From Eledone cirrhosa (taxonomy: Eukaryota): a stretch of DNA of 64,000 nucleotides. Location of the stretch: assembly GCA_964016885.1 (NCBI GenBank), contig OZ024740.1, positions 207,576,001 to 207,640,000 of the forward strand, read 5' to 3'. Position numbers and translations under genes: made by a program. The notes under the pieces were generated by a model. That model was not told the DNA's origin. It saw only the letters and a list, made by a program, of their open reading frames with translations, and ran no database searches. This document shows, one piece after another, positions 7,762 to 63,809 of the stretch. Position 1 is the stretch's first letter, and the number at the start of each line of letters is the position of its first letter.

Positions 7762-8584
7762 AACGTCTGTCTATCTATCTACTTACATATCTGTCTGTTG
7801 TTATTGTTGTTTCAGTTGTTATTCTAACGCGAAGAAGACTTGGATATTCCAGTGTCTTTACATAGAATGTTGTAATCAAGGATTGATTTGTGTTTACGAT
7901 GCGCCATTTTCGGCGGGTATTATGCTAATATACACGCATACACACACTCATATATATGTACTTATATTTTTCTGCGCACGATTGTTTTTTTCGCTATGAA
8001 TAGTCATTATAGAATAGGTGCAGTAATATCACAATAAGGCACCAGAAGATCTCCAGAAGTTTGCCGGTCATTAAAACAATGATTTTATCACAAATGGATT
8101 TCTCCAGTTTATAACACTGGTCTATTTTCTATAGATAAATCTACTCACTTAAGTCTGTTAATCACAGAGTTTGCCCTGCCATAGTTTAAGAGGGCTTAAG
8201 TTGTATGTTTTAAAAACAATGGCATGAAATAGAGAAGTTTGTTATTTCAAGGATCTTCTCAAATTACATAACACTTTTATCGGATATAATCACGCTTAAA
8301 CCATTATACAAGATAATAACTAGGAATATTATTGAAGGAGGTTAATGACCATATTGGATGTGGTCATTGGCCAATGATTCTACTGGTCTTCAGTTAAAAA
8401 CCAATTACTCAACTACTTGTCCCAGCCGACAGGCTGGGCCATGCTGGGGCACCGTCACCGCTACTACACTTTCTATAGCCAGCCTTCCGTTTGGCCACTG
8501 ATGCAAAAGGGAGTGTGTTGCTGCTGCACTTATTTGTGCTTCGCTTCATGCTGTAGGTTCATCCGGGTTCATCCGTGATCTTTA

Positions 8585-10265
8585 TGATGATGGCAGTGTT
8601 GGATGGTGTTGTGATGGTGGTAGTGGTGAGGGTGGTGGTGGTGGTGGTGTTGGATGACAGTGTTGTGATGGTGTTGTGATGGTGATAGAGGTGAGGGTGG
8701 TGGTGGTGGTGTTGGTGTTGGTGTTGGATGGCAGTGTTGGATGGTGTTGTGATGGTGGTGGTGGTGGTGGTGGTGTTGGATGGCAGTGTTGGATGGTGTT
8801 GTGATGGTGATAGTGGTGATGGTGGTGGTGGTGGTGGTGATGGTGGTGGTGGTGGTGGTGGTGGTGGTGGTGTTGGATGGCAGTGTTGTGATGGTGTTGT
8901 GATGTGATAGTGTTGTGATGGTGATAGTGGTGGTGGTGATGGTGATGGTGGTGATGGTGGTGGTGGTGGTGGTGGTGATGGTGGTGATGGTGGTGGCAGT
9001 GTTGGATGGTGTTGTGATGGTGATAGTGGCGATGGTGGTGGTGGTGTTGGATGGCAGTGTTGTGATGGTGCTGTGATGTGATAGTGTTGTGATGGTGATA
9101 GTGGTGGTGGTGATGGTGATGGCAGTGTTGTGATGGTGTTGTGATGGTGATAGTAGTGATGGTGGTGGTGGTGGTGGTGATGGTGGTGGCAGTGTTGGAT
9201 GGTGTTGTGATGGTGATAGTGGCGATGGTGGTGGTGGTGTTGGATGGCAGTGTTGTGATGGTGTTGTGATGTGATAGTGTTGTGATGGTGATAGTGGTGG
9301 TGGTGATGGTGATGGCAGTGTTGTGATGGTGTTGTAATGGTGATAGTGGTGATGGTGGTGGTGGTGGTGATGGTGGTGGCAGTGTTGGATGGTGTTGTGA
9401 TGGTCATAGTGGCGATGGTGGTGGTGGTGTTGGATGGCAGTGTTGTGATGGTGTTGTGATGTGATAGTGTTGTGATGGTGATAGTGGTGGTGGTGATGGT
9501 GATGGCAGTGTTGTGATGGTGTTGTAATGGTGATAGTGGTGATGGTGGTGGTGGTGGTGATGGTGGTGGCAGTGTTGGATGGTGTTGTGATGGTCATAGT
9601 GGCGATGGTGGTGGTGGTGTTGGATGGCAGTGTTGTGATGGTGTTGTGATGTGATAGTGTTGTGATGGTGATAGTGGTGGTGGTGATGGTGATGGCAGTG
9701 TTGTGATGGTGTTGTGATGGTGATAGTGGTGATGGTGGTGGTGGTGGTGATGGTGATGGCAGTGTTGTGCTGGTGTTGTGATGGTGATAGTGGTGGTGGT
9801 GGGGGTGGTGGTGGTAGTGATGGTGATGGCAGTGTTGTGCTGGTGTTGTGATGGTGATAGTGGTGGTGGTGGGGGTGGTGGTGGTGATGATGGTGATGGC
9901 AGTGTTGTGCTGGTGTTATGATGGTGATAGTGGTGGTGGTGGTGGTAGTGGTGGTGGTGATGGTGATGGCAGTGTTGTGATGGTGTTGTGATGGTGTTGT
10001 GATGGTGGTGGTAATGGTAATGGTGGTGATGGTGGTGGTGGTGGTGGTGGTTGTGATGGTGGTGGTGAAGATGATGATGATAGCAGTGTTGAGATGTTGT
10101 TGTGCTGGTGATAGTAGTGATCACAATGGTGGTGATGGTGGTGGTAATGGTGGTGGTGGTGGTGGTGGTGGTGGTGGTAATGGTGATGGTGGTGGTGGTG
10201 GTGGTGATGATGGCAGTGTTGGAGGTTGTTGTGATGGTGATAGCGGTAATGCTTGTGGTGCTGGT
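8585..10265. repeat. Complex GGT/GAT-derived tandem repeat with higher-order units
   Basis: Recurrent GGCAGTGTTGTGATGGTGTTGTGATG blocks among (GGT)n. Confidence 0.9.
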
Positions 10266-13200
10266 GAGGATGTTGGTAGTGGTGGTAGTGGTGGTGTTAG
10301 GAGTGGTGGTAGTGGTGGTGTCGAGAGTGGTGGTAGTGGTGGTGTTAGGAGTGGTGGTAGTGGTGGTGTCGAGAGTGGTGGTAGTGGTGGTGTTAGGAGT
10401 GGTGGTAGTGGTGGTGTCGAGAGTGGTGGTAGTGGTGGTGTTAAGAGTGGTGGTAGTGGTGGTAGTGGTGGTAGTGTTGGTAGTGGTGGTAGTGGTGGTG
10501 TCAAGAGTGGTGGTAGTGGTGGTGGTAATACTGGTGGTAGTGGTGGTAGTGGTGGTAGTGGTGTTGTCAAGAGTGGTGGTGGTGGTGGTAGTGGTGATAG
10601 TGGTGGTGTTAAGAGTGGTGATAGTGGTGGTGTCAAGAGTGGTGGTAGTGGTGGTGTCAAGAGTGGTGGTAGTGGTGGTGTTAAGAGTGGTGGTAGTGGT
10701 GGTGTTAAGAGTGGTGGTAGTGGTGGTGTTAAGAGTGGTGATAGTGGTGGTGTCAAGAGTGGTGATAGTGGTGGTGTCAAGAGTGGTGGTAGTGGTGGTG
10801 TCAAGAGTGGTGGTAGTGGTGGTGTTAAGAGTGGTGGTAGTGGTGGTGTTAAGAGTGGTGGTAGTGGTGGTGTTAAGAGTGGTGATAGTGGTGGTGTCAA
10901 GAGTGGTGATAGTGGTGGTGTCAAGAGTGGTGGTAGTGGTGGTGTTAAGAGTGGTGGTAGTGGTGGTGTTAAGAGTGGTGGTAGTGGTGGTGTTAAGAGT
11001 GGTGATAGTGGTGGTGTTAAGAGTGGTGATAGTGGTGGTGTCAAGAGTGGTGATAGTGGTGGTGTCAAGAGTGGTGGTAGTGGTGGTGTTAAGAGTGGTG
11101 GTAGTGGTGGTGTTAAGAGTGGTGGTAGTGGTGGTGTTAAGAGTGGTGATAGTGGTGGTGTCAAGAGTGGTGATAGTGGTGGTGTCAAGAGTGGTGGTAG
11201 TGGTGGTGTCAAGAGTGGTGGTAGTGGTGGTGTTAAGAGTGGTGGTAGTGGTGGTGTTAAGAGTGGTGATAGTGGTGGTGTCAAGAGTGGTGATAGTGGT
11301 GGTGTTAAGAGTGGTGGTAGTGGTGGTGTTAAGAGTGGTGGTAGTGGTGGTGTTAAGAGTGGTGGTAGTGGTGGTGTTAAGAGTGGTGATAGTGGTGGTG
11401 TCAAGAGTGGTGATAGTGGTGGTGTCAAGAGTGGTGGTAGTGGTGGTGTTAAGAGTGGTGGTAGTGGTGGTGTTAAGAGTGGTGGTAGTGGTGGTGTTAA
11501 GAGTGGTGGTAGTGGTGGTGTTAAGAGTGGTGATAGTGGTGGTGTCAAGAGTGGTGATAGTGGTGGTGTCAAGAGTGGTGGTAGTGGTGGTGTTAAGAGT
11601 GGTGGTAGTGGTGGTGTTAAGAGTGGTGGTAGTGGTGGTGTTAAGAGTGGTGGTAGTGGTGGTGTTAAGAGTGGTGGTAGTGGTGGTGTTAAGAGTGGTG
11701 GTAGTGGTGGTGTTAAGAGTGGTGGTAGTGGTGGTGTTAAGAGTGGTGATAGTGGTGGTGTCAAGAGTGGTGATAGTGGTGGTGTCAAGAGTGGTGGTAG
11801 TGGTGGTGTTAAGAGTGGTGGTAGTGGTGGTGTTAAGAGTGGTGGTAGTGGTGGTGTTAAGAGTGGTGGTAGTGGTGGTGTTAAGAGTGGTGATAGTGGT
11901 GGTGTCAAGAGTGGTGATAGTGGTGGTGTCAAGAGTGGTGGTAGTGGTGGTGTTAAGAGTGGTGGTAGTGGTGGTGTTAAGAGTGGTGGTAGTGGTGGTG
12001 TTAAGAGTGGTGATAGTGGTGGTGTCAAGAGTGGTGATAGTGGTGGTGTCAAGAGTGGTGGTAGTGGTGGTGTTAAGAGTGGTGGTAGTGGTGGTGTTAA
12101 GAGTGGTGGTAGTGGTGGTGTTAAGAGTGGTGATAGTGGTGGTGTTAAGAGTGGTGATAGTGGTGGTGTCAAGAGTGGTGATAGTGGTGGTGTCAAGAGT
12201 GGTGGTAGTGGTGGTGTCAAGAGTGGTGGTAGTGGTGGTGTTAAGAGTGGTGGTAGTGGTGGTGTTAAGAGTGGTGGTAGTGGTGGTGTTAAGAGTGGTG
12301 ATAGTGGTGGTGTCAAGAGTGGTGATAGTGGTGGTGTTAAGAGTGGTGGTAGTGGTGGTGTTAAGAGTGGTGATAGTGGTGGTGTCAAGAGTGGTGGTAG
12401 TGGTGGTGTCAAGAGTGGTGGTAGTGGTGGTGTTAAGAGTGGTGATAGTGGTGTTGTAAAGAGTGGTAGTAGTTGTGGTGGTAGTGGTGGTGTTAAGAGT
12501 GGTGGTAGTGGTGGTACTGGTGGTAGTGGTGGTAGTGGTGGTGTCAAGAGTGGTGGTAGTGGTGTTGTTAAGAGTGGTGGTAGTTGTGGTGGTAGTGGTG
12601 GTGTTAAGAGTGGTGGTAGTGGTGGTGTTAAGAGTGGTGGTAGTGGTGGTGTTAAGAGTGGTGGTGGTAGTGGTGTCGAGAGTGGTGATAGTGGTGGTTG
12701 TGGTGGTATCAAGAGTGGTGGTAGTGGTGGTGTTAAGTGTGGTGGTAGTGGTGGTGTTAAGAGTGGTGGTAGTGGTGGTAGTGGTGGTGTTAAGAGTGGT
12801 GGTAGTGGTGTTGTTAAGAGTGGTGGTAGTGGTGTTGTAAAGAGTGGTAGTAGTTGTGGTGGTAGTGGTGGTGTTAAGAGTGGTGGTAGTGGTGTTGTTA
12901 AGAGTGGTGGTAGTGGTGGTGTTAAGAGTGGTGGTAGTGGTGGTTGTGGTGGTATCAAGAGTGGTGGTAGTGGTGGTGTTAAGTGTGGTGGTAGTGGTGG
13001 TGTTAAGAGTGGTGGTAGTGGTGGTAGTGGTGGTGTTAAGAGTGGTGGTAGTGGTGTTGTTAAGAGTGGTGGTAGTGGTGGTAGTGGTGGTGTTAAGAGT
13101 GGTGGTAGTGGTGGTGTTAAGAGTGGTGGTAGTGGTGGTAGTGGTGGTATCAAGAGTGGTGGTAGTGGTGGTGTTAAGAGTGGTAGTAGTGATGGTGGTA

Positions 13201-14790
13201 GTGGTGTTGTTAAGAGTGGTGATAGTGGTGGTGTTAAGAGTGGTGGTAGTGGTGGTAGTGGTGGTGTTAAGAGTGGTGGTAGTGGTGGTAGTGGTGGTGT
13301 CAAGAGTGCTGGTAGTGGTGGTGTTAAGTGTGGTGGTAGTGGTGGTGTTAAGAGTGGTGGTAGTGGTGGTTGTGGTGGTATCAAGAGTGGTGGTAGTGGT
13401 GGTGTTAAGTGTGGTGGTAGTGGTGGTGTTAAGAGTGGTGGTAGTGGTGGTGTCGAGAGTGGTGGTAGTGGTGGTGTTAAGAGTGGTGGTAGTGGTGATA
13501 GTGGTGGTGTCAAGAGTGGTGGTAGTGTTGGTGTTAAGAGTGGTGGTAGTGGTGGTGTTAAGAGTGGTGGTAGTGGTGGTGTTAAGAGTGGTGGTAGTGG
13601 TGGTAGTGGTGGTGTCAAGAGTGCTGGTAGTGGTGGTGTTAAGAGTGGTAGTAGTGATGGTGGTAGTGGTGTTGTTAAGAGTGGTGATAGTGGTGGTGTT
13701 AAGAGTGGTGGTAGTGGTGGTAGTGGTGGTGTTAAGAGTGGTGGTAGTGGTGGTAGTGGTGGTGTCAAGAGTGCTGGTAGTGGTGGTGTTAAGAGTGGTA
13801 GTAGTGATGGTGGTAGTGGTGTTGTTAAGAGTGGTGATAGTGGTGGTGTTAAGAGTGGTGGTAGTTGTGGTAGTGGTGGTAGTGGTGGTGTCAAGAGTGC
13901 TGGTAGTGGTGGTGTTAAGAGTGGTAGTAGTGATGGTGGTAGTGGTGTTGTTAAGAGTGGTGGTAGTGGTGGTGTTAAGAGTGGTGGTAGTGGTGGTGTT
14001 AAGAGTGGTGGTAGTGGTGGTGTCAAGAGTGGTGGTAGTGGTGGTGTTAAGAGTGGTGGTAGTGGTGGTGTTAAGAGTGGTGGTAGTGGTGGTGTTAAGA
14101 GTGGTAGTAGTGGTGGTGTCAAGAGTGGTGGTAGTGGTGGTGTTAAGAGTGGTGGTAGTGGTGGTGTTAAGAGTGGTGGTAGTGGTGGTGTCAAGAGTGG
14201 TGGTAGTGGTGTTGTCAAGAGTGGTGGTAGTGGTGGTAGTGGTGGTAGTGGTGGTAGTGGTGATGTCAAGAGTGGTGGTAGTGGTGGTGTTAAGAGTGGT
14301 GGCAGTGGTGGTGTCAAGAGTGGTGATAGTGGTGGTGTTAAGAGTAGTGGTAGTGGTGTTGTTAAGAGTGGTGGTAGTGGTGGTGTTAAGAGTGGTGGTA
14401 GTGGTGGTGTTAAGAGTGGTGGTAGTGGTGTTGTTAAGAGTGGTGGTAGTGGTGGTGTTAAGAGTGGTGGTAGTGGTGTTGTTAAGAGTGGTGATAGTTG
14501 TGGTGTTAAGAGTGGTAGTAGTGGTGATGTCAAGAGTGGTGGTAGTGGTGGTGTTAAGAGTGGTGGTAGTGGTGGTGTTAAGAGTGGTGGTAGTGGTGTT
14601 GTTAAGAGTGGTGGTAGTGGTGGTGTTAAGAGTGGTGGTAGTGGTGGTGTTAAGAGTGGTGGTAGTGGTGTTGTTAAGAGTGGTGGTAGTTGTGGTGTTA
14701 AGAGTGGTGGTAGTGGTGGTGTTAAGAGTGGTGGTAGTGGTGTTGTTAAGAGTGGTGGTAGTTGTGGTGTTAAGAGTGGTGGTAGTGGTG
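10266..14790. repeat. 24-bp minisatellite (GGTGGTAGTGGTGGTGTTAAGAGT and variants), ~4.5 kb
   Basis: TTAAG recurs at 10681 and 10705 (period 24); GAT/GGT and GTC/GTT variants. Confidence 0.95.
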
Positions 14791-15038
14791 AAGGCTGATG
14801 TTATTGATGGTATGTGTGGTAATAGTGATAATGGTATTATTTTTGTTAGCAGTGGTGATGGTATTGGTGGTGTTTGTGTTGGTAATGGTGGTTTTGGCAG
14901 CGGTAGAATCGTTGGAAGTATTGGTGGTAATGAAGTGGTGGTGGTGGTGGGGTGGTGGTTACAACGGTGTGTGGTTGCTGTCCTTGGTGCTGGCGTAAAA
15001 ATATAGAAAATAAAACAAATGTTATAGAGAAAATGTAT

Positions 15039-16844: not shown

Positions 16845-18937
<2,093 letters not shown>

Positions 18938-18941
<4 letters not shown>

Positions 18942-19483
18942 GTAGGTAAAGTCAATTTTTTAAAATTTATTTTGAAACTTTCATTATCTGCTAAACCTTG
19001 TTTATATATGTTCTGGCTCGTTAATTTATTAACCTGCCAATGAACCACATTGGCATTTGGTTGGACAATACATGCGTCCCTTAGCGCCTTGTGCGTGAAG
19101 GAACACATATCCTATTATTACTATTCTCCTCTATTGTTGAGAAGCAAATTTGGTTTTTCCGACTGCTGCTAGTGATAGTTGCGGCCGGTTGACCTACCTC
19201 CCTCTGCCTCTATCTTTACTTCGGCCCTTGAAAAAATTGATTCCACTTCATTCACTCTCATCTCGGGAACAGTTTTGGATAGCGCTAGTTCGTAATTTAT
19301 ATTCAAGAATTTTATATTCTTCGAATGAAAAGAACCTTCTGACGAGAATCTTTCTTTGCAACGAAGGCCGTATGGCCTCCGTTTATTTTTGGGATTCGAA
19401 ACCGATCGGTAAAGGTAACTATAGTAGGTAAAGTCAATTTTTTAAGATTTATTTTGAAACTTTTTCATTATTTTCTAAACCTT

Positions 19484-43032: not shown

Positions 43033-43420
43033 CATATGAAAAAGTGAGTCCTTCATCGGTGACCCTCCAACCGTCCTGGGCATTTCATCGCTTTAAGGGC
43101 CATATGCCTCGGGTTGGTGCGAACAACGGCTAAAAAAAGTCGTTGGGACACGTAAATAAAGGGGGACGCCAGAGTAACAACAAAAAAGTTTTAGCGACGG
43201 AAAGTGAGTAGAAATAGACAAGTCCCAGATCTCTATGAATATAAACTCTGTGAAATCGTGAACAAGAGACAAAAGACCATCAAACCTGGTTGAAATGTGA
43301 GCAAGGAAAGAATTTCGCCCAAGTTTGACGGGTCGCACCAACCCGAGGCATATGGCCCTTAAAGCGATGAAATGCCCAGGACGGTTGGAGGGTCACTGAT
43401 GAAGGACTCACTTTTTCATA
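43033..43420. repeat. ~390-bp element with ~88-bp inverted repeats, in (TA)n
   Basis: ATATGAAAAAGTGAGTCC...GGTTGGTGCGA versus TCGCACCAACC...GGACTCACTTTTTCATAT. Confidence 0.85.
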
Positions 43421-43441
43421 TATATATATATATATATATAC

Positions 43442-44283
43442 ACAAATATAAATTAGCGATAATCGTATTTCGGCTTTGGAATTAGCGAAAAACAACTTCC
43501 GAGGTGTGTGGCAAGCGCTCAATAATTCTGACGAACCAGAGCTACAACATACGTTAAAGGCCAAACACACTGAGACGATGGTTAAACCGTCATCCGCACA
43601 GCCATAGAAACGACCAAGTAATTCGAGTCAAACAAATAAAAAAAAATGTAATTGAAAAATTTACCCGGACCCCTGGATGGTTGGTAAAATCCAGCATTTG
43701 GGTTTCTGCGACTCCTAAATCAAGTACTGTCCGCTTAGACAAATAATGTTAGGCTTCTGGTAAGATGATTGAACGAGGAAGTCACTTTCTCAACAGGTTT
43801 TTATTCAAGTGCCCGGCGAGGAATGACCGTTACCGATACCCACGTGGGGCTCGACAAGGGAGGCAACCCTTATTTTTGGCGGATGAAATTCAGTATGTGT
43901 ATATTATTGCAAAAATGCAAAACATCACAAAACGAATTAAGCTCTCAACAGAATGGTTATAAGTTAAAAGCTATTCATCAGTCAATAGAATCAACTAAAA
44001 AAATCAAGAAAATTAACTGGTCAATAGCTAGACTCTGGAGATTAATACAAATATAAATTAGCGAGAATCGTATTTCGGCTTTGGAATTAGCGAAAAACAA
44101 CTTCCGAGATATGTGGCAAGTGCTCAATAATTCTGACGAACCAGAGCTACAACATACGTTAAAGGCCAAACACACTGAGATGATGGTTAAACCGTCATCC
44201 GCACGGCCATAGAAACGACCAAGTAATTCGGGTCAAACAAATAAAAAAATATGTGATTGAAAAATTTACCCGGACCCCTGGAT
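43442..44283 (-). mobile_element. Retrozyme-like 605-bp unit with ~236-bp terminal redundancy, in (TA)n
   Basis: ACAAATATAAATTAGCGA at 43442 and 44047; the repeat ends at CGGACCCCTGGAT. Confidence 0.8.
43663..43798 (-). ncRNA. Type I hammerhead ribozyme with U3-A8 variant core and extended stems II and III
   Basis: ACCTG TTGAGAA a GTGACT-t-CCT...AGG AGTCGC a GAA ACCC aaatg CTGGA..TCCAG GGGT C CGGGT. Stems I, II and III all pair; GUC triplet. Confidence 0.7.
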
Positions 44284-44916
44284 ATATATATATATTTATA
44301 TAAAAATGAGGCTCAAATTGTTGTTTATATATATATTTGCTTATCAGCCATTCCAGGTTGACAATACATAGACACACATACAAACACACATAGACACATA
44401 CACACAGATAGACACACACAAACACATAAACACACACACAAACACACACAAACACACACACACGCACATACACACACACACGCACACACACACACGCACA
44501 TACACACACGCGCACACACACACTCGCACACACATACACACACACATATATATATATATATTTACCGAACATTTATTATAATGTTCGGTTTGTTTGTAAA
44601 CAAACAGCCCGAATTACGCCGTACTGACAAAGGAAAGATGATATATATATATATATATATATCATCGTTCCTTTGTCAGTGTTGAACAAAAGGGCGACGA
44701 TGTACGGCGTAATTCGAGCTGTTTGTTTACAAACAAACCGAACATTATAATAAATGTTCGGTAAACCCATACGTACATATATATATGTGTGCCTGTATGT
44801 ATATATATACATACTACTGTACGTCTGTATACATATATGTATGTACGTATACATACTTATATTTAAGTATCAGCCGTACTAAGAGTGAGAAATGAAATTT
44901 CGTTTTATTCTTTTCC

Positions 44917-44956
<40 letters not shown>

Positions 44957-45499
44957 ATATGTGTGTGCGTGTGTGTGTGCGCGCGTGTGTGTGTGTGTGT
45001 GTATGTGCGTGTGTGTGTGTGTGCGTGTGTGTGTGTATATGCGTGTGTGTGTTTGTGTGTGTGTTTATGTGTTTGTGTGTTTGTGTGTGTCTATCTGTGT
45101 GTATGTGTCTATGTGTGTTTGTATGTGTGTCTATGTATTGTCAACCTGTAATGGCTGATAAGCAAATATATATATATATATAAACAACAATTTAAGCCTC
45201 ATTTTTAAGGCAAATACAATAACAATTTTGGAACACGAACTGACGCGAAATTTATTGTACTTATTCACGTGACAGTCATCAACCAAAAAAAAAAAAAAAA
45301 AAAGCCCCACCAATTCGAGCCACTCTTTCCACATAAAACAGAAAGAAATTTCGGACACGAACCAGATGCGAGATAAACCACAAACCCTCTCAATTCTACA
45401 TTTGAAAAGCATAAATATTCTTAAAAAGACTCCAGTTGTATTTTCGATTTCTTTTCCTCATACTTTCACCCATGTAGGACATCTCGTTTTTTATTTAAA

Positions 45500-48232: not shown

Positions 48233-51200
48233 TTGCTGGGTAGCTGACCTCTACAACACTACTGTTGCTGGGTAGCTGACCTCTACAACACTACTGTTGT
48301 TGGGTAGCTGACCTCTACAACACTACTGTTGTTGGGTAGCTGACCTCTACAACACTACTGTTGTTGGGTAGCTGACCTCTACAACACTACTGTTGTTGGG
48401 CAACTGACCTCTACAACACTACTGTTGTTGGGCAACTGACCTCTACAACACTACTGTTGCTGGGCAGCTGACTTCTATAACACTACTGTTGTTGGGCAAC
48501 TGACCTCTACAACAGTACTGTTGCTGGGCAGCTGCTTCTACAACACTACTGTTGCTGGGCAGCTGACTTCTACAACACTACTGTTGCTGGGTAGCTGACT
48601 TCTACAACACTACTGTTGCTGGGCAGCTGACTTCTACAACACTACTGTTGCTGGGTAGCTGACTTCTACAACACTACTGTTGCTGGGTAGCTGACTTCTA
48701 CAACACTACTGTTGCTGGGTAGCTGACCTCTACAACACTACTGTTGCTGGGTAGCTGACCTCTACAACACTACTGTTGCTGGGTAGCTGACTTCTATAAC
48801 ACTACTGTTGCTGGGTAGCTGACTTCTACAACACTACTGTTGCTGGGTAGCTGACTTCTACAACACTACTGTTGTTGGGCAACTGACCTCTACAACACTA
48901 CTGTTGCTGGGTAGCTGACCTCTACAACACTACTGTTGCTGGGTAGCTGACTTCTACAACACTACTGTTGTTGGGCAACTGACTTCTACAACACTACTGT
49001 TGCTGGGTAGCTGACCTCTACAACACTACTGTTGTTGGGCAACTGACCTCTATAACACTACTGTTGCTGGGTAGCTGACCTCTACAACACTACTGTTGCT
49101 GGGCAGCTGACTTCTACAACACTACTGTTGTTGGGCAACTGACCTCTACAACACTACTGTTGCTGGGTAGCTGACCTCTACAACACTACTGTTGCTGGGC
49201 AGCTGACTTCTACAACACTACTGTTGCTGGGTAGCTGACCTCTACAACACTACTGTTGCTGGGTAGCTGACCTCTACAACACTACTGTTGCTGGGCAACT
49301 GACCTCTACAACAGTACTGTTGTTGGGCAACTGACCTCTACAACACTACTGTTGCTGGGTAGCTGACTTCTACAACACTACTGTTGCTGGGTAGCTGACC
49401 TCTACAACACTACTGTTGCTGGGTAGCTGACTTCTACAACACTACTGTTGCTGGGCAGCTGACTTCTACAACACTACTGTTGTTGGGCAACTGACCTCTA
49501 CAACACTACTGTTGCTGGGTAGCTGACTTCTACAACACTACTGTTGCTGGGTAGCTGACTTCTACAACACTACTGTTGTTGGGCAACTGACTTCTACAAC
49601 ACTACTGTTGTTGGGCAACTGACCTCTACAACACTACTGTTGCTGGGTAGCTGACCTCTACCACACTACTGTTGCTGGGTAGCTGACTTCTACAACACTA
49701 CTGTTGCTGGGCAACTGACCTCTACAACACTACTGTTGCTGGACAGCTGACTTCTACAACACTACTGTTGTTGGGCAACTGACCTCTACAACACTACTGT
49801 TGCTGGGTAGCTGACTTCTACAACACTACTGTTGTTGGGTAGCTGACCTCTACAACACTACTGTTGCTGGGTAGCCGACTTCTACAACACTACTGTTGCT
49901 GGGCAACTGACCTCTACAACACTACTGTTGCTGGGCAGCTGACTTCTACAACACTACTGTTGTTGGGCAACTGACCTCTACAACACTACTGTTGCTGGGT
50001 AGCTGACTTCTACAACACTACTGTTGCTGGGTAGCTGACCTCTACAACACTACTGTTGCTGGGTAGCTGACTTCTACAACACTACTGTTGCTGGGTAGCT
50101 GACTTCTACAACAGTACTGTTGCTGGGTAGCTGACTTCTACAACACTACTGTTGTTGGGCAACTGACCTCTACAACACTACTGTTGCTGGGCAGCTGACT
50201 TCTATAACACTACTGTTGCTGGGTAGCTGACTTCTACAACACTACTGTTGCTGGGTAGCTGACCTCTACAACACTACTGTTGCTGGGTAGCTGACCTCTA
50301 CAACAGTACGGTTGCTGGGTAGCTGACTTCTACAACACTACTGTTGTTGGGCAACTGACCTCTACAACACTACTGTTGCTGGGCAGCTGACTTCTATAAC
50401 ACTACTGTTGCTGGGTAGCTGACTTCTACAACACTACTGTTGCTGGGTAGCTGACTTCTACAACAGTACTGTTGCTGGGTAGCTGACTTCTACAACACTA
50501 CTGTTGCTGGGTAGCTGACTTCTACAACAGTACTGTTGCTGGGCAACTGACCTCTACAACACTACTGTTGCTGGGTAGCTGACCTCTACAACAGTACGGT
50601 TGCTGGGTAGCTGACTTCTACAACACTACTGTTGTTGGGCAACTGACCTCTACAACACTACTGTTGCTGGGTAGCTGACTTCTACAACACTACTGTTGCT
50701 GGGTAGCTGACCTCTACAACACTACTGTTGCTGGGTAGCTGACTTCTACAACACTACTGTTGTTGGGCAACTGACTTCTACAACACTACTGTTGTTGGGC
50801 AACTGACCTCTACAACACTACTGTTGCTGGGTAGCTGACTTCTACAACACTACTGTTGCTGGGTAGCTGACCTCTACAACACTACTGTTGCTGGGTAGCT
50901 GACCTCTACAACACTACTGTTGTTGGGCAACTGACCTCTACAACACTACTGTTGTTGGGCAACTGACCTCTACAACACTACTGTTGCTGGGTAGCTGACC
51001 TCTACAACACTACTGTTGTTGGGTAGCTGACCTCTACAACACTACTGTTGTTGGGCAACTGACCTCTACAACACTACTGTTGCTGGGTAGCTGACTTCTA
51101 CAACACTACTGTTGTTGGGCAACTGACCTCTACAACACTACTGTTGCTGGGTAGCTGACTTCTACAACACTACTGTTGTTGGGTAGCTGACCTCTACAAC

Positions 51201-52101
51201 ACTACTGTTGTTGGGCAACTGACCCCTACAACAGTACTGTTGCTGGGTAGCTGACTTCTACAACAGTACGGTTGCTGGGTAGCTGACCTCTACAACAATA
51301 CTGTTGCTGGGCAACTGACCTCTACAACAGTACGGTTGCTGGGTAGCTGACTTCTACAACACTACTGTTGCTGGGTAGCTGACCTCTACAACACTACTGT
51401 TGCTGGGTAGCTGACCTCTACAACACTACTGTTGCTGGGTAGCTGACTTCTACAGCACTACTGTTGCTGGGTAGCTGACCTCTACAACATTACTGTTGCT
51501 GGGTAGCTGACCTCTACAACACTACTGTTGCTGGGTAGCTGACTTCTACAACACTACTGTTGTTGGGCAACTGACCTCTACAATACTACTGTTGCTGGGT
51601 AGCTGACCTCTACAACAGTACGGTTGCTGGGTAGCTGACTTCTACAACACTACTGTTCCTGGGTAGCTGACCTCTACAACACTACCGTTGCTGGGTAGCT
51701 GACTTCTACAACACTACTGTTGCTGGGTAGCTGACTTCTACAACACTTCTGTTGCTGGGTAGCTGACTTCTACAACACTACTGTTGCTGGGTAGATGACC
51801 TCTACAACAATACTGTTGCTGGGCAACTGACCTCTACAACAGTACGGTTGCTGGGTAGCTGACTTCTACAACACTACTGTTGCTGGGTAGCTGACCTCTA
51901 CAACACTACTGTTGCTGGGTAGCTGACCTCTACAACACTACTGTTGCTGGGTAGCTGACTTCTACAACACTACTGTTGCTGGGTAGCTGACCTCTACAAC
52001 ACTACTGTTGCTGGGTAGCTGACCTCTACAACACTACTGTTGCTGGGCAACTGACCTCTACAACACTACTGTTGCTGGGCAACTGACCTCTACAACAGTA
52101 C
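48233..52101. repeat. 32-bp minisatellite (CTGTTGCTGGGTAGCTGACYTCTACAACACTA), ~120 copies
   Basis: TAGCTG at 48241 and 48273; no spacers. Confidence 0.97.
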
Positions 52102-55913: not shown

Positions 55914-58165
55914 GCAGTTATTGGATGCAACATTTTTGGAATGTTTTACATATTTTTACTGTTCCATTAATGGATCGTACTTGTAATTTCCTAACTAGTT
56001 GTGTTCTTTCTGTTCCTGTAAAGCCTAGCTTCTCAAGATTTGTATTGAGGCAGTTACTAACATACCCCAGTGCCCCGATAATCACAGGCATTAATCTGAA
56101 GGTGTAATCAAGGTGGAGTATCTGCAGATTTCTCATCAGTTCTGCATAAATATTCCCCTTTTCGCTAACCTTTGATATTTTATTGGCATCTGCTGGGAAG
56201 CTAATTTCCACTACTGTGCATGGTTTCTTCTCCCTCTCCCATATCATAATATCTGGTCTGTTATGCCTGCATTTTATTGGGGTTTTTACTGGAACATTCC
56301 ACCAGTACTCTTTCATATTATGTACGTGGATGTCTTCCACATTGCTTTAGCTTTTAATGTGTTTATTATCGGCGCTATCTTTTTTACGGACTGCATTGTA
56401 CAGTGTTTTGCCCACTACATCATGTCTCATAGGTAGATAGTACTGCGATGATATCTTTGGACAGCTGCTGATGACATGGGTGATATCCTCGATGTTAGTT
56501 CTGCAGAGTCTGCACTTGTTATCACATATAAGTGTTTTGCCTGCATCCCTATCTCATTTGTGAATCAGGTATTTCGTGTTAATTTCCTGTTCTTGGATTG
56601 CAAAAGCGTATCCTTCAATGTGGGAGCCAATATAGCGGTTGTTGGTCCAAGATAGACTACTTTCTTTATCTATATTACTCTCACTCTGGAGCTGCCTGGC
56701 AACATACCCATGCATGATTTTTTGCTGATAAGCATGCAGTTTTTCATCCATGGATTCACTGCGATACTGCTGAGCGACTTCCCTGGGTGTGAGTTTTTGA
56801 TTATCACACAGGAAATATCTCTCGAGGAGTTCCTTCCCAACTCTCATGATCTTATCTGTTTCAGCAGATAGACTTGCTCGAGAGACGGGCTCCTCCGCTT
56901 CGAGTTTCGTAAATGCTGTCGGAGGGATATGATGCGATATTCAAATGCTGTCTGGACTGATGTTAGGTTTATGTCACTGTTGATGTGGAAGTTTCCGGTA
57001 TTGTTTAGTATTTTTCGAGTTCCAACATCAACTGCTCGGATTTCGTCTATCGTCCAATTGAGTAGTCCAAACGTTGGTGTTAGGACAGGCCCATCAAACA
57101 CATTGTGAGCCACTGTTTTGTTTTGCGCAGAGAGTTCCGATGACCAAATCTTTCTTAATCGGGTGTAGTATTCCCTGGTTACGCCGTCCTTATTACAGAT
57201 ACCATTATAAGATATGTTCTCATCTATCCCCAGGTATCTGTAGCAGTCCTCATCAGATATCGGTGAAACAGTTAGACCATTGATGACAATGTTGCTAGAT
57301 TGGGTTGTTGCTCCCCCCGCTTTACACTCATGTATGAGCATTTATCTTGGCCAAACTCCATTTCTATATCCTTTGAGAACGTTGTAACCAGCTCAAGATT
57401 TTTCTTCATCCCATCCATGTTCTTGGCATAGAGTTTCAGATCGTCCACAAAGAAATTATGGGTTAGGTTCGTATTTCTGTGCTCCTGTGAGCCAATGATG
57501 TATCCCTCACATTCCTTGAGCAGAAAGGACAAAGGGTTTAATGACAAGATGAATAATATCACAGAGAGACTGTATCCCTGAAATATACTCCTGTGATATT
57601 TTATTTTATCAGTGAAAATAGAGTCCCCCCTCTCTGTCTTTAACCTTAGGCTAGTAGCCCAAGAAGAAGACAGATTCTCTATGGCTCTGAAAATAATGTC
57701 TGGAACTTTAGCAAGTTGGAGGGCCTCTATCATCCGAGAGTGAGGAACAGAATCGAAAGCTCTCCTGTAGTCCAGCCAGACTGTAGCCATATTCCTCCTT
57801 AGTTGTCGCACCTCCGACATCGCAGTTTTGTTGATTAAGAGTTGTTCAGCACATCCCCAAACCCCTTTCTTTCCAGCAGCGTGTTCATCTGTGATGATGT
57901 TATTATTTTCACAGTGATATTGGAGCAATAGGTTCAGGCAGGCTGTATACATCTTATACATCAGGTTCTGGCATGCAATGGGTCGGTAGTTTTTTGCCAT
58001 GTGGGTGTCTTTGTTCTTGGGGACCAGTAATGTTTGTGCTAATGTCAACCATTCTGGTATAAGAGTATCTCCTTTAAGAACTTAGTAGAGGTTAGTAAGA
58101 TACCTCCGATAGAATATCAGTTTTTTTTGTACGAGTAGCCGACAATCATGTCTCTTCCTGGTCTG
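55914..58165 (-). pseudogene. R4/Dong-like (RLE-type) LINE, 5'-truncated and frameshifted: RT + CCHC + restriction-like endonuclease
   Basis: NYRPIAC, WLDYRRAFDSVPH, IFQGYSLS, FFVDDLKLYA, YRYLGI, AIQEQEINT, HNRPDIMIW..VEISFP, PVIIGALG across consecutive ORFs; adjoins (TATG)n. Confidence 0.88.
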
Positions 58166-59068: not shown

Positions 59069-59139
59069 AAAATGTAAAAAGAAAAAAATAACACAATCAG
59101 TACAGTATATGGAAGGAATATATTAGGTTAACGCTTGTC

Positions 59140-60018
59140 GTTCTATTGAGGATTAGTGGAGGGGAAGAGCGACGACATACTTGGGAAACTCTAGGCGTCG
59201 ATGAAAATCAACTAGCCAAACTCTTCGGAAGAACTTTCGGGCCGGGCCCTATGGACTACGTCCAGAAATCCCTGGCCTGGCAGTGCTACCGAGGAGCTTT
59301 GCCAGTTCGGGATAAACTCTACAGGCATGGAGGTGCCGTCAGCCGGGCATGTCCGAGATGCACGCAGAGCGACGAAACCGTCCTGCACGCACTCGTCCAG
59401 TGTCCGAGCATTGCTGACTTGTGGGTTTATGTCGAACACCTGCTGTCGCGTGTAGGACGGATCCAGTTATCAGCTGAGTCCATCGTGAGGATTGCCCCGC
59501 CCTCTTCTTTTAGCCGGGAAGAGCAGGCAACTTTTATCTGTCTGGTGGCCATGGCGAAAGAGATAGTATGGTGGACGCGTTTGAAAGGGCTGAAGATGAG
59601 CACTTACCTCTTCGGTGATGCCCTGATTAACCTTTTCAAATTTCATTTAAAAAGGAAAATCAGGGGAGAGAGGGAAGTGCTCTCTTCCCAGTATTTTGTT
59701 TAAAGATGGCTGAGAGAGGCAAGAATGGCCCGTGTGAATGTATCCTCTGAGTATGTGCCTGTAAATTGAAGGGGGAAAACTGGGAGAGGGCACTTGCCCT
59801 GGTGCTCAGGGTCACCGTGGATTTTTTAATGGGCTTTCTCCATGATGGCCCTCGGAAGTCTCCCCCTATTGGAGAACTTTTCATTGTTTCTTTTTTTTGT
59901 TGCATCCTCTGTTTTTGTTTTTCTACACGCAGAAATGCCCATTTGTACCGTCCTGTATTGTCCTGTACTATCCTTAATGTCTTACTTTGTGTAAACTTTT
60001 GTGGTTAATAAAGAAACC
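59140..60018 (+). mobile_element. L1/Tx1-clade LINE 3' end (zf-RVT CCHC region + 3' UTR)
   Basis: LAWQCYRGALPVRDKL..CPRC..DETVLHALVQC..W motif; T-rich 3' UTR ending in AATAAA. Confidence 0.8.
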
Positions 60019-62002: not shown

Positions 62003-63350
62003 ACTCTTTTACTCTTTTACCTGTTGCAGCCATCCGGCTGAGGCCATGCTGGGGCACCTCCCTTGTTGCTACACATTCTATCTCCAGCCTGTGTTGGCTG
62101 GCCATTGGTGTAAGATGGAGTTCGTTGCTGCTGCCCTTAAGTTACCTTCGTACCGTGCTGTGGGTTCATTCGGGATCGTGGATAGCAAGGTGTCGAGATG
62201 TTTCTTGAAAATATCCGCGTCCACACCATGCAGATCTCTCTAATTCCTTGGCAGGTTGTTGAAGAGTTGAGGGCCTTTGAACCCCAGGCTATTGCAATAT
62301 CTTCTCCTTATTCTAGATGTGAAAGACGGGACCTTTGGCACCACACATTGATGTCCTGTTTGGAGGTTGGTCCAGCTCTCAATGGCAAAGTTTGGTACTA
62401 GTGCCTCCAGTATTTTCCATGTGTATATTACTGCGTATCTCTCTCATCTTCGTTCCAAGGAGTAGAGGTACAGTTCTTTTAGCCTCTCCCAATAGCTTAT
62501 CTCCTTCATCGTGGCAATCCTCTTGGTGTAGCTTTGTTGGATTGCCTAAAGCTCCGTGGTTAGTTTGATACTATGGGGTGAACACAGCTGGGAGCAATAG
62601 TCCAGGCGGCTTAGGACAAATGTCCTCCATAGTATCAACATGGTCTCTCGGTATCTTGTCAGGAAAGTCCTCAAGATCCAGCCAGCGAGTCGTCTGCACA
62701 TTGTTGCTACCCTCATGATGTGTGAAGAAAAAGATCCATCGTCGCTCATGTCTATCCCCAGGTCTCGTATCGATTTCGACACGGGAATTTCGATCCCTCC
62801 TGATCCGGTGTAGCTGTGTTGTACTGTCCTTGTGTTTGCAGGTTGGTATTGTAGCACTTGAAATTTTCCAGCATTAAACTGTATGTTGTTCTCCTCAGCC
62901 CATTTGTATATGGCATCCAGATCTTATAAAAGGTCAGTATCAGCCGAGTTTTTTTTTTTATTGCTGTGCTACTTTTCTGTCACCAGCATAGCTAGTGAGG
63001 GATGGTGTATGTATACAGAGGGCATGTCTGAGCGAGCCACAAAAAACAGTAGTGGTCCCAAGATTGTGCCCAGGTGAACTCCACTTGTTATTGATGTTTC
63101 CTTTGAGTGGGCCTTATTAGCTGCAACTGTCTGGCTTCTGTCTTTTAAGAAATCATGCAGCCACTCACCTACTTTTCCAGTTATGCCGAGTCTGTGTAGG
63201 TTGTGACATATCATTCCGTCAAAGGCTTTGTCAAAGGTCTTCGCAAAGTCAAGATTTATCGCGTCCACATGTGAGCTGTCTAGCAGTTGTTTCAGTACCC
63301 TGTCATACTGTTGTAACAGCTTTGTAAGACAGCTTCTTCCTGGGCGAAAG
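62003..63350 (-). pseudogene. CR1/Jockey-group LINE RT and 3' end, degenerate
   Basis: DAINLDFAKTFDK, SGVHLGTILGPLLF, FNAGKFQVL, IRDLGI, SRLDYCSQL; short TACTCTTT repeat tail. Confidence 0.85.
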
Positions 63351-63809
63351 AAGTATGTCTTGCTGATCAGTAAGACATACCCCTTTAAGAAAACCCACTG
63401 TACAAATAAGAAATGTGTTATATATAAAATGAACTCCGAGTTAAAGTGTAAAACTATAAATGTTGTCTATAGCATAAGATGTACAGAGGGTACTTGCAGA
63501 CACAGGACAACGACATACATAGGTGAGACAGCTCGAAGCATAGGAGAAAGAATAGACCAACACTGGGGGAAACTAATAGGACAAAAAAAAAACGGTTTAG
63601 TACTATATGAACACGCCAGACAACAACATGACGGTAATATAGACAACATAGAAATTGAAATAATATCTAAGCATAGAAATGACTCAACAGGTAGGCAAAT
63701 CAGAGAAGCAACTGAGATAGAACTAAGAAGACCAAAGTTGAACAGGAAGACCGAATGGAATAAAAACAACCATACCCAAACAAATAATACTGACTTAAGG
63801 GAAATATAA
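63350..63809 (+). pseudogene. GIY-YIG endonuclease end of a second Penelope-like family, 5'-truncated
   Basis: C..NVVYSIRC....C....YIGETARSIGERIDQH..LYEH..H..RQIREATEI..PKLNRKTEW. Confidence 0.85.

Follow-up and report, generated by a model that had tools for sequence, protein, structure and literature searches.

Metazoan non-LTR retrozymes are described as non-coding, low-GC tandem units that carry one type I hammerhead each and occur as monomers, dimers and long arrays (PMC7229834; 10.64898/2026.07.22.740005), with unit sizes of 150-450 bp in Cervera and de la Pena 2020 (PMC7229834) and of 51-972 bp in Li, Clavereau and Pollet 2026 (10.64898/2026.07.22.740005), the latter regarding retrozymes as derivatives of Penelope-like elements (PLEs). 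Large stems III are reported for the hammerheads of PLEs from fungi and protists, among which one cleaves in monomeric form (PMC4209133). For an anole PLE, PAc Poseidon, it has been established in vitro that reverse transcription initiates internally at AT-rich nicks and that insertion does not depend on hammerhead catalysis (PMC11167929, Frangieh et al. 2024). A core in which positions 3 and 8 have covaried to U3-A8 is also on record: it occurs in nature and is stated to be active in vitro, and a mismatch at the foot of stem II is tolerated (PMC3088659, Perreault et al. 2011). In S. mansoni, ~1,300 U3-A8 hits have an extra base after A9, and in Figure S3 of the same report two rows are U3-A8, a single row is U3·G8, and AGAAA stands in one of 56 GAAA cells (PMC4209133). 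The U3-A8 pair itself is already published and is not new.

The element described here lies on the minus strand at 43442..44283 of a 64,000-nt stretch of Eledone cirrhosa DNA, hereafter the window. Its family has a layout like that of non-LTR retrozymes and Penelope-type insertions (PMC7229834; 10.1101/2021.04.23.441226; PMC11167929): head-to-tail hammerhead units without protein coding are found both dispersed and in arrays, and the unit length of 605 nt falls within the 51-972 bp range but exceeds the 150-450 bp one. With PLE hammerheads, including the S. mansoni variant, the family shares U3-A8, an extra base that separates positions 9 and 10.1, G10.1-C11.1 and a short stem I, whereas metazoan PLE hammerheads differ from it in having short stem II loops, a stem III that is missing or palindromic, and poor activity, as dimers (PMC4209133). 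It resembles PAc Poseidon in its AT-rich targets, partial tandems, a presumed start of reverse transcription within the RNA, downstream of the hammerhead, and a presumably cleavage-free insertion; unlike it, PAc Poseidon is autonomous, has a canonical minimal C3-G8 hammerhead and starts ~90 nt after the cut rather than ~226 nt (PMC11167929). Unlike the described metazoan retrozymes, the family, known here from DNA alone, combines a U3-A8 core with a 78-nt stem II without a short loop 2, a long stable stem III and an extra A before GAAA (PMC7229834; 10.64898/2026.07.22.740005). The core variants of Perreault et al. 2011 share U3-A8, and no long-armed retroelement family is described in the accessible text of that report (PMC3088659). 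We consider it quite probable that the insertion belongs to a non-coding 605-nt repeat of high copy number, which has a conserved hammerhead fold of type I and a fixed 3' but variable 5' end in a TA repeat, and that this repeat is likely a non-LTR retrozyme for which a Penelope-like reverse transcriptase/endonuclease acts in trans.

The 605-nt unit and its hammerhead motif

Direct reading and self-comparison show that the insertion at 43442..44283 comprises 1.39 head-to-tail units, because 44283-44047 recurs 605 nt downstream at 43678-43442 with 96.2% identity over 237 nt. The first unit is complete (43679..44283, minus strand), and the second (43442..43678, minus strand; 237 nt) stops at the fixed 3' end of the family, ~226 nt past the predicted cut. 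The insertion contains one complete hammerhead and is flanked by TA runs on both sides, a (TA)n run that may be target or tail at the 3' junction (43418..43440) and a TA-rich run at the 5' junction (44282..44300). Since the AT at the element's 5' end doubles as a continuation of the TA flank, this boundary is placed at 44281-44283, 9-11 nt upstream of the equivalent scissile bond. The end is occupied by the 3' remnant of an upstream hammerhead (44268..44283, minus strand), consisting of the end of stem III, the GUC and the 3' strand of stem I, with the equivalent cut at 44273/44272. The unit has a GC content of 39%, under 50%, the longest ATG-started frame in its circularised form encodes 77 aa, leaving no long ORF, and no LTR layout was seen in the element copies inspected. 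Directly after the element lies an inverted-repeat pair (43418-43336 and 43122-43036), in one arm of which a further hammerhead core begins and is then truncated by the TA run. Upstream, 44400-44336 has an inverted copy at 45102-45207 and 44500-44436 has one at 42579-42515; judged by their sequence, these inverted flank copies suggest nested Penelope-type insertions.

Read on the minus strand, 43798-43663 forms a hammerhead of type I, in which three helices surround the core and stem I is open; the earlier note had described the hammerhead motif together with the 605-nt unit. Stem I is formed by ACCUG (43794..43798) and CGGGU (43663..43667), and the first core box reads U3 U4 G5 A6 G7 A8 A9 (UUGAGAA; 43787..43793) and the second G12 A13 A14 A15.1 (GAAA; 43703..43706), so that all elements of the consensus (N3-U4-G5-A6-N7-N8-A9, G12-A13-A14, A15.1-U16.1, H17 and a 3-8 pair) are present in the window copy, the pair being U3-A8. 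The GUC triplet (43667..43670) places C17 at 43668 and the predicted cut between 43668 and 43667 by established hammerhead numbering. Stem III (43669..43703) is bulged and non-palindromic (ACCC/GGGU plus CUGGA/UCCAG), with a predicted energy of about -9 kcal/mol. The 78-nt stem II (43708..43785) consists of a 9-bp basal helix with one bulge and a 59-nt interrupted hairpin extension (43775-43717); the structured insert of ~55 nt reported earlier is therefore present and slightly longer, but its own fold is no better than that of shuffled sequences (z +0.77). Canonical loop 2 is absent, and a conserved GUUC/GAUU internal segment in stem II is a candidate loop-contact site only. The foot of stem II is flanked by unpaired bases that were missing from the earlier description, A43786 between A9 and G10.1, a place at which the family has A, C, U or G, and A43707 between C11.1 and G12, which are paired in only one of 21 aligned rows, and direct stacking of stem II on A9·G12 is thus interrupted by an extra base on each side.

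The three-way fold is both the minimum free energy (MFE) and the centroid structure of the isolated 141-nt motif, the folding energy of which is ordinary relative to shuffles (z +0.16). No hammerhead match was returned by Rfam for the motif at the gathering score or at E<=10; the earlier note had stated that a CUGANGA search misses it. From its sequence the motif is very probably hammerhead-derived. What sets it apart is the combination of the 78-nt stem II, the conserved extra A before GAAA and the non-palindromic stem III with a word, downstream, whose sequence covaries with the 3' strand of stem I and which is predicted to turn the ribozyme off.

The other hammerheads of the window have C3-G8 cores and palindromic stems III, and the contrast in stem III drawn by the earlier note is upheld. 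An elaborated stem II, in contrast, does not distinguish the element from its neighbours, since two neighbouring C3-G8 families have stems II of ~50 nt and one of them has the same extra bases at the foot. The hammerheads at 18750 (+), 17771 (-) and 17211 (-) belong to a unit of ~556 nt with a C3-G8 core, a 51-nt stem II and a palindromic stem III; they carry an extra C and A at the stem II foot, as in the 605-nt unit, and have no sequence similarity to that unit. Two more C3-G8 hammerheads with palindromic stems III lie at 19333 (+) and 40007 (-), the latter type being present also at loci L003 and L105. A comparison of the 605-nt unit with the neighbouring hammerhead families of the window gave AT-rich matches only. 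Elsewhere in the window, fragments resembling, by eye, LINE reverse-transcriptase ORFs occur at 56844-58081 (-), 59092-59703 (+) and 62969-63466 (-), and long tandem arrays with 24/48-nt and 32-nt periods at 8584-14800 and 48233-52101.

Copy number and conservation of the fold

In the 3.0-Gb genome, an exact pattern of the motif with the U3 core had 2,706 matches, compared with 13 for its control, and another exact pattern had 1,866, compared with 21; DNA searches yielded 2,701 and 3,411 first-look candidates, of which 40 of each were scored. Family units are ~580-650 nt long and lack an ORF. They are dispersed or arrayed, and longer forms include tandem dimers and copies that run into the upstream unit. 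Satellite-like arrays of ~23 and ~11 units (G000:C2:207127775-207141800, loci L237, L194 and L238; G000:C3:158367100-158373950, loci L239 and L240) have 81-85% identity to the window unit and a hammerhead in each unit, and are possible source loci. At locus L093 copies are in an inverted-plus-direct arrangement. Related subfamilies resemble the window unit at 67-77%, or in the hammerhead only. A dimer count based on a 605-nt-gap pattern was not accepted and shorter patterns were used instead, by which 195 places reach unit position 46 and 55 span the upstream cut; this ratio was not used, because the motifs favour different subfamilies. Contigs from two sequencing runs of one sample contained the diversity of the family with no pile-up of begins or ends, and are uninformative on expression.

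Two side observations concern relatives of the unit. A small element with a tRNA-like start is inserted in the unit at L094:1578-1758, L096:2045-2219, L039 and L085, at an identical place in the stem II loop at three loci. A more distant C3-G8 family (L164, L167, L175, L178 and L184), which accounts for ~20 among 100 matches listed, has the same start of stem I and an 82-nt stem II.

Conservation of the fold was assessed with two alignments. From 26 of 31 extracted motifs (five were dropped as duplicates, deleted or truncated), RNAalifold recovered stems I and II and the base of stem III unprompted, with three of 18 pairs changed on both sides. In a hand-picked alignment of 21 diverse motifs, from subfamilies with 61% mean column identity, 82.9% of cells were paired under the proposed structure and both sides had changed in 56 cells, compared with 27-44% and 6-18 for slid partners. 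None of 500 shuffles matched the paired, cell and score measures; stricter measures that count pairs or types were attained by 58 and 253 of the 500, respectively. Both-sided changes affected six of the nine pairs of basal stem II, whereas variation in stem I was wobble only. The distal helix of stem III aligned poorly (67% of cells paired), although most rows still fold some hairpin there, and most rows also fold a hairpin in the stem II extension. The extra A before GAAA was present in all 21 rows of the diverse alignment and in 25 of the 26 RNAalifold motifs, mostly from search patterns that did not demand it, the 5' extra base being free to vary, and A15.1-U16.1 was present in 21 of 21 rows. 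Among 145 instances, N7 took all four bases, U4-G5-A6 was kept in 141 and A9 in 143, positions partly required by the search patterns; these and later tallies of the 145 derive from targeted fetches and are not genome frequencies, and the script demanded the extra A before G12. In a young subfamily the core mutation rate was lower (1.2% vs 2.3%), a comparison set aside because the copies had been selected for their likeness to that region. Support for stems I-III extends across diverged subfamilies, the compensatory changes lying mainly in stem II, and the covariation among copies and the conservation of core and stems bear out the fold first read from the single copy.

U3-A8 predominates in the family, and three true C3-G8 homologs occur on the same scaffold (L188, L189 and L190); two more C-G rows in the tally of the 145 instances, L039 and L165, are misparsed and were not counted. 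The proposal that U3 and A8 form a compensatory pair thus stands insofar as the pair is conserved across subfamilies and has C3-G8 counterparts, but the pair is not strictly kept. In one subfamily with 71 matches, 41 are U3-A8, 29 are C3·A8, including three tandem pairs, and one is U3·G8; among the first 100 matches listed for the U3-core pattern, 11 are U3·G8, several of which share diagnostic sequence and one of which looks unrelated. Since C3·A8 and U3·G8 lineages have multiplied, unpaired or wobble cores have spread too. The dominant 3/8 states are the two Watson-Crick pairs or single-step neighbours of them.

A downstream word predicted to compete for stem I

Downstream of the cut, most copies contain a word that is complementary to stem I's 3' strand and is separated from it by a loop of <10 to ~60 nt. 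It reads ACUCG in the window copy (43624..43628, minus strand) and ACCCG in most copies, as does the upstream copy of the word at 44229..44233 (minus strand), which in the MFE of the cut or circular monomer is paired to its first bases. Word and stem I are coupled: among the 145 instances, CAGG is accompanied by ACCUG in 22 and by ACCCG in five, and CGGG by ACCCG in 72 and by ACCUG in one, with 42 lacking such a word and three in other states. Compared with two control windows, the word scored higher in 105 of 133 instances and in 22 of the 31 representatives of subfamilies; it equalled or outscored stem I's own partner in 106 of 133 and 22 of 31. The coupled change occurred about two or three times on the tree, with counterexamples at L203 and L132 and a loss in the L004/L180 group, and therefore the independent support that it provides is modest.

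In most of 17 copies, predicted pairing moved to the downstream hairpin as the transcript lengthened, and when upstream sequence was included the predicted stem I was already rare in many of them. With flanks, the hammerhead fold of the window copy was 2.4-4.7 kcal/mol less stable than the MFE, and that of nine relatives in context 0-10 kcal/mol, depending on the flank included; in the cut monomer and the circle, the downstream hairpin supplants stem I in the predicted fold. A tentative proposal, to which we give less than even weight, is that the motif may represent a separate long-armed hammerhead subtype of animal retrozymes with an off switch, in which the word 8-60 nt past the cut, covarying with stem I's 3' strand as CAGGU/ACCUG versus CGGGU/ACCCG, would capture this strand once transcribed, so that a ribozyme able to work as a monomer would be limited to cutting in a short co-transcriptional window and multimers and circles would be silent. 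Such a restriction would explain partial tandems and read-through. Co-transcriptional selection is established for viroid hammerheads (PMC1636495), and we found no account of such a long-armed family or such a switch in animal retrozymes in the open-access papers searched. In the sequences inspected no core box followed the downstream ACCYG, and a part for it in a permuted (type III) hammerhead was rejected. A reading of GUUCRA as a Pol III B box was likewise set aside; there is a T5 run after the cut, and T runs are many in the unit.

Insertion ends, proposed mobilisation and alternatives

The 3' end of the family is fixed, the alignment stopping at unit position 237-243 in 29 of 30 loci (the remaining one is cut at 167), and in most of these loci (TA)n follows. 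The 5' ends, in contrast, are scattered over unit positions 1 to 430. In a set of 30 position-ordered loci that reach position 46, which represent 29 insertions with boundaries set by eye, 11 stop at positions 15-45, one approximately at the cut, three (the window copy included) 1-11 nt upstream of the cut, and the remaining 14 still farther upstream. The observation in the earlier note that the element begins just upstream of the cut site therefore holds for this copy, but its end is one of many, and 17 of the 29 insertions run past the predicted cut. These read-throughs indicate that the cut does not fix the 5' end, although it may bias it, and since read-through requires a circular or an uncleaved template, it does not tell these two apart. 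Unit positions 16-45, where the 11 ends fall, are 90% AT, and such a target-like stretch can both end synthesis and blur the boundary; over all 5' ends the AT content was not significantly raised (0.66 vs 0.61, p 0.09).

These features match a PLE-mobilised footprint: a fixed 3' end past the hammerhead, 5' truncation, partial tandems, inversions and a microsatellite target. We infer that tandem arrays or dimers would be transcribed, that a Penelope-type enzyme would nick (TA)n DNA, and that reverse transcription would start inside the RNA ~210-290 nt past the hammerhead cut. A multimeric or circular template would then be copied over a variable distance, often beyond the next cut site, which would yield partial tandems like the 1.39-mer. 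The hammerhead would trim multimers to monomers for circularisation, and its cleavage would probably be dispensable for each insertion. Cleavage by the motif as a monomer is plausible, and the hammerhead is probably slow or conditional, given its U3-A8 core, the extra bases at the stem II foot and the competing folds.

Of the alternatives, the one that survives best, though we regard it as doubtful, is a fast monomeric ribozyme with an obligatory cycle, in which every master RNA would be cleaved at the GUC, closed by ligation into a circle of 605 nt and then copied round, with many 5' ends being set by the cut. The stable non-palindromic stem III and a cut-to-cut monomer that folds well (z -3.38, 20 shuffles) speak for it, as do the circles shown for coral, mussel and axolotl retrozymes (PMC7229834). 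So does the excess of stops at unit positions 1-45, found in 14 of 28 long insertions where ~20% is expected (p ~3e-4), but that expectation comes from one young subfamily and the tested insertions mix subfamilies. Moreover, at most one of the 29 ends lies within 2 nt of the predicted cut and 11 fall in the AT-rich stretch, lineages with mismatched 3-8 cores amplify, and uncleaved multimers explain read-through as well as circles do.

It is unlikely that the hammerhead is a catalytically dead relic, kept by descent or as a structured RNA for protein binding or stability, in an element that would be a passenger of Penelope enzymes or a satellite. The extra A before G12, the lineages with non-Watson-Crick 3-8 states and the low predicted occupancy of stem I in context are consistent with such a relic, as is the independence of PLE insertion from hammerhead catalysis in vitro (PMC11167929). 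However, the core boxes, A15.1-U16.1 and the GUC are fixed across subfamilies while N7 and the stems vary with compensation, and the prevalence of Watson-Crick 3/8 states and their single-step neighbours likewise argues against loss of function.

A candidate mobiliser was encountered beside L079, in the form of a Penelope-like ORF belonging to an abundant family (22,946 candidates) that is Neptune-like by its motifs and joins a GIY-YIG-like end and a cysteine-rich linker to a reverse transcriptase, for which the RVT_1 match (E 1.4e-4) is weak and below the Pfam cut-off. In most of 30 loci this family carries a canonical minimal hammerhead of its own, and the first TA run follows that hammerhead at 137-229 nt (20 loci). 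Similarity between the 605-nt unit and this family, the one PLE family compared, is of low complexity only, and its candidacy is by analogy of geometry only. An autonomous partner at L079/L089 was rejected, since the ORF there belongs to the family with its own canonical hammerhead. No autonomous element with the present hammerhead or its 3' end was found in the one PLE family compared and the loci inspected, no linked ORF was found at five C3-G8 homologs, and the arrangement of an autonomous PLE, an ORF for reverse transcriptase plus GIY-YIG between pseudo-LTRs, was absent. The abundant family itself (L097-L126) has open frames of up to 942 aa and two alternative 3' ends ~60 nt apart, and a 200-aa frame in the window at 63207-63809 (-) resembles its linker and GIY-YIG end. 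A reading in which an autonomous Penelope-like element has the unit as its pseudo-LTR region, the copy being a truncated autonomous insertion, is very improbable and largely refuted: two loci do have PLE ORF sequence ~0.9 kb upstream of a related U3-A8 hammerhead, but that ORF family owns a canonical hammerhead, reverse transcriptase occurs in only those two of 30 subfamily loci (which share flanks) and in one more on the far side, and what lies upstream of position 1 is the previous unit, with no ORF.

For the role of hammerheads in Penelope-type and retrozyme transposition, the family provides a scaffold that escapes standard descriptors and Rfam. Its copies number in the thousands and every 3/8 state has amplified lineages, so that copy number can be compared with cleavage rate, and the occurrence of all four states (U-A, C-G, C·A and U·G) in one scaffold provides a natural series on whether cleavage matters to spread. 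The downstream switch, if true, would mean viroid-like timing of self-cleavage in animal retrozymes.
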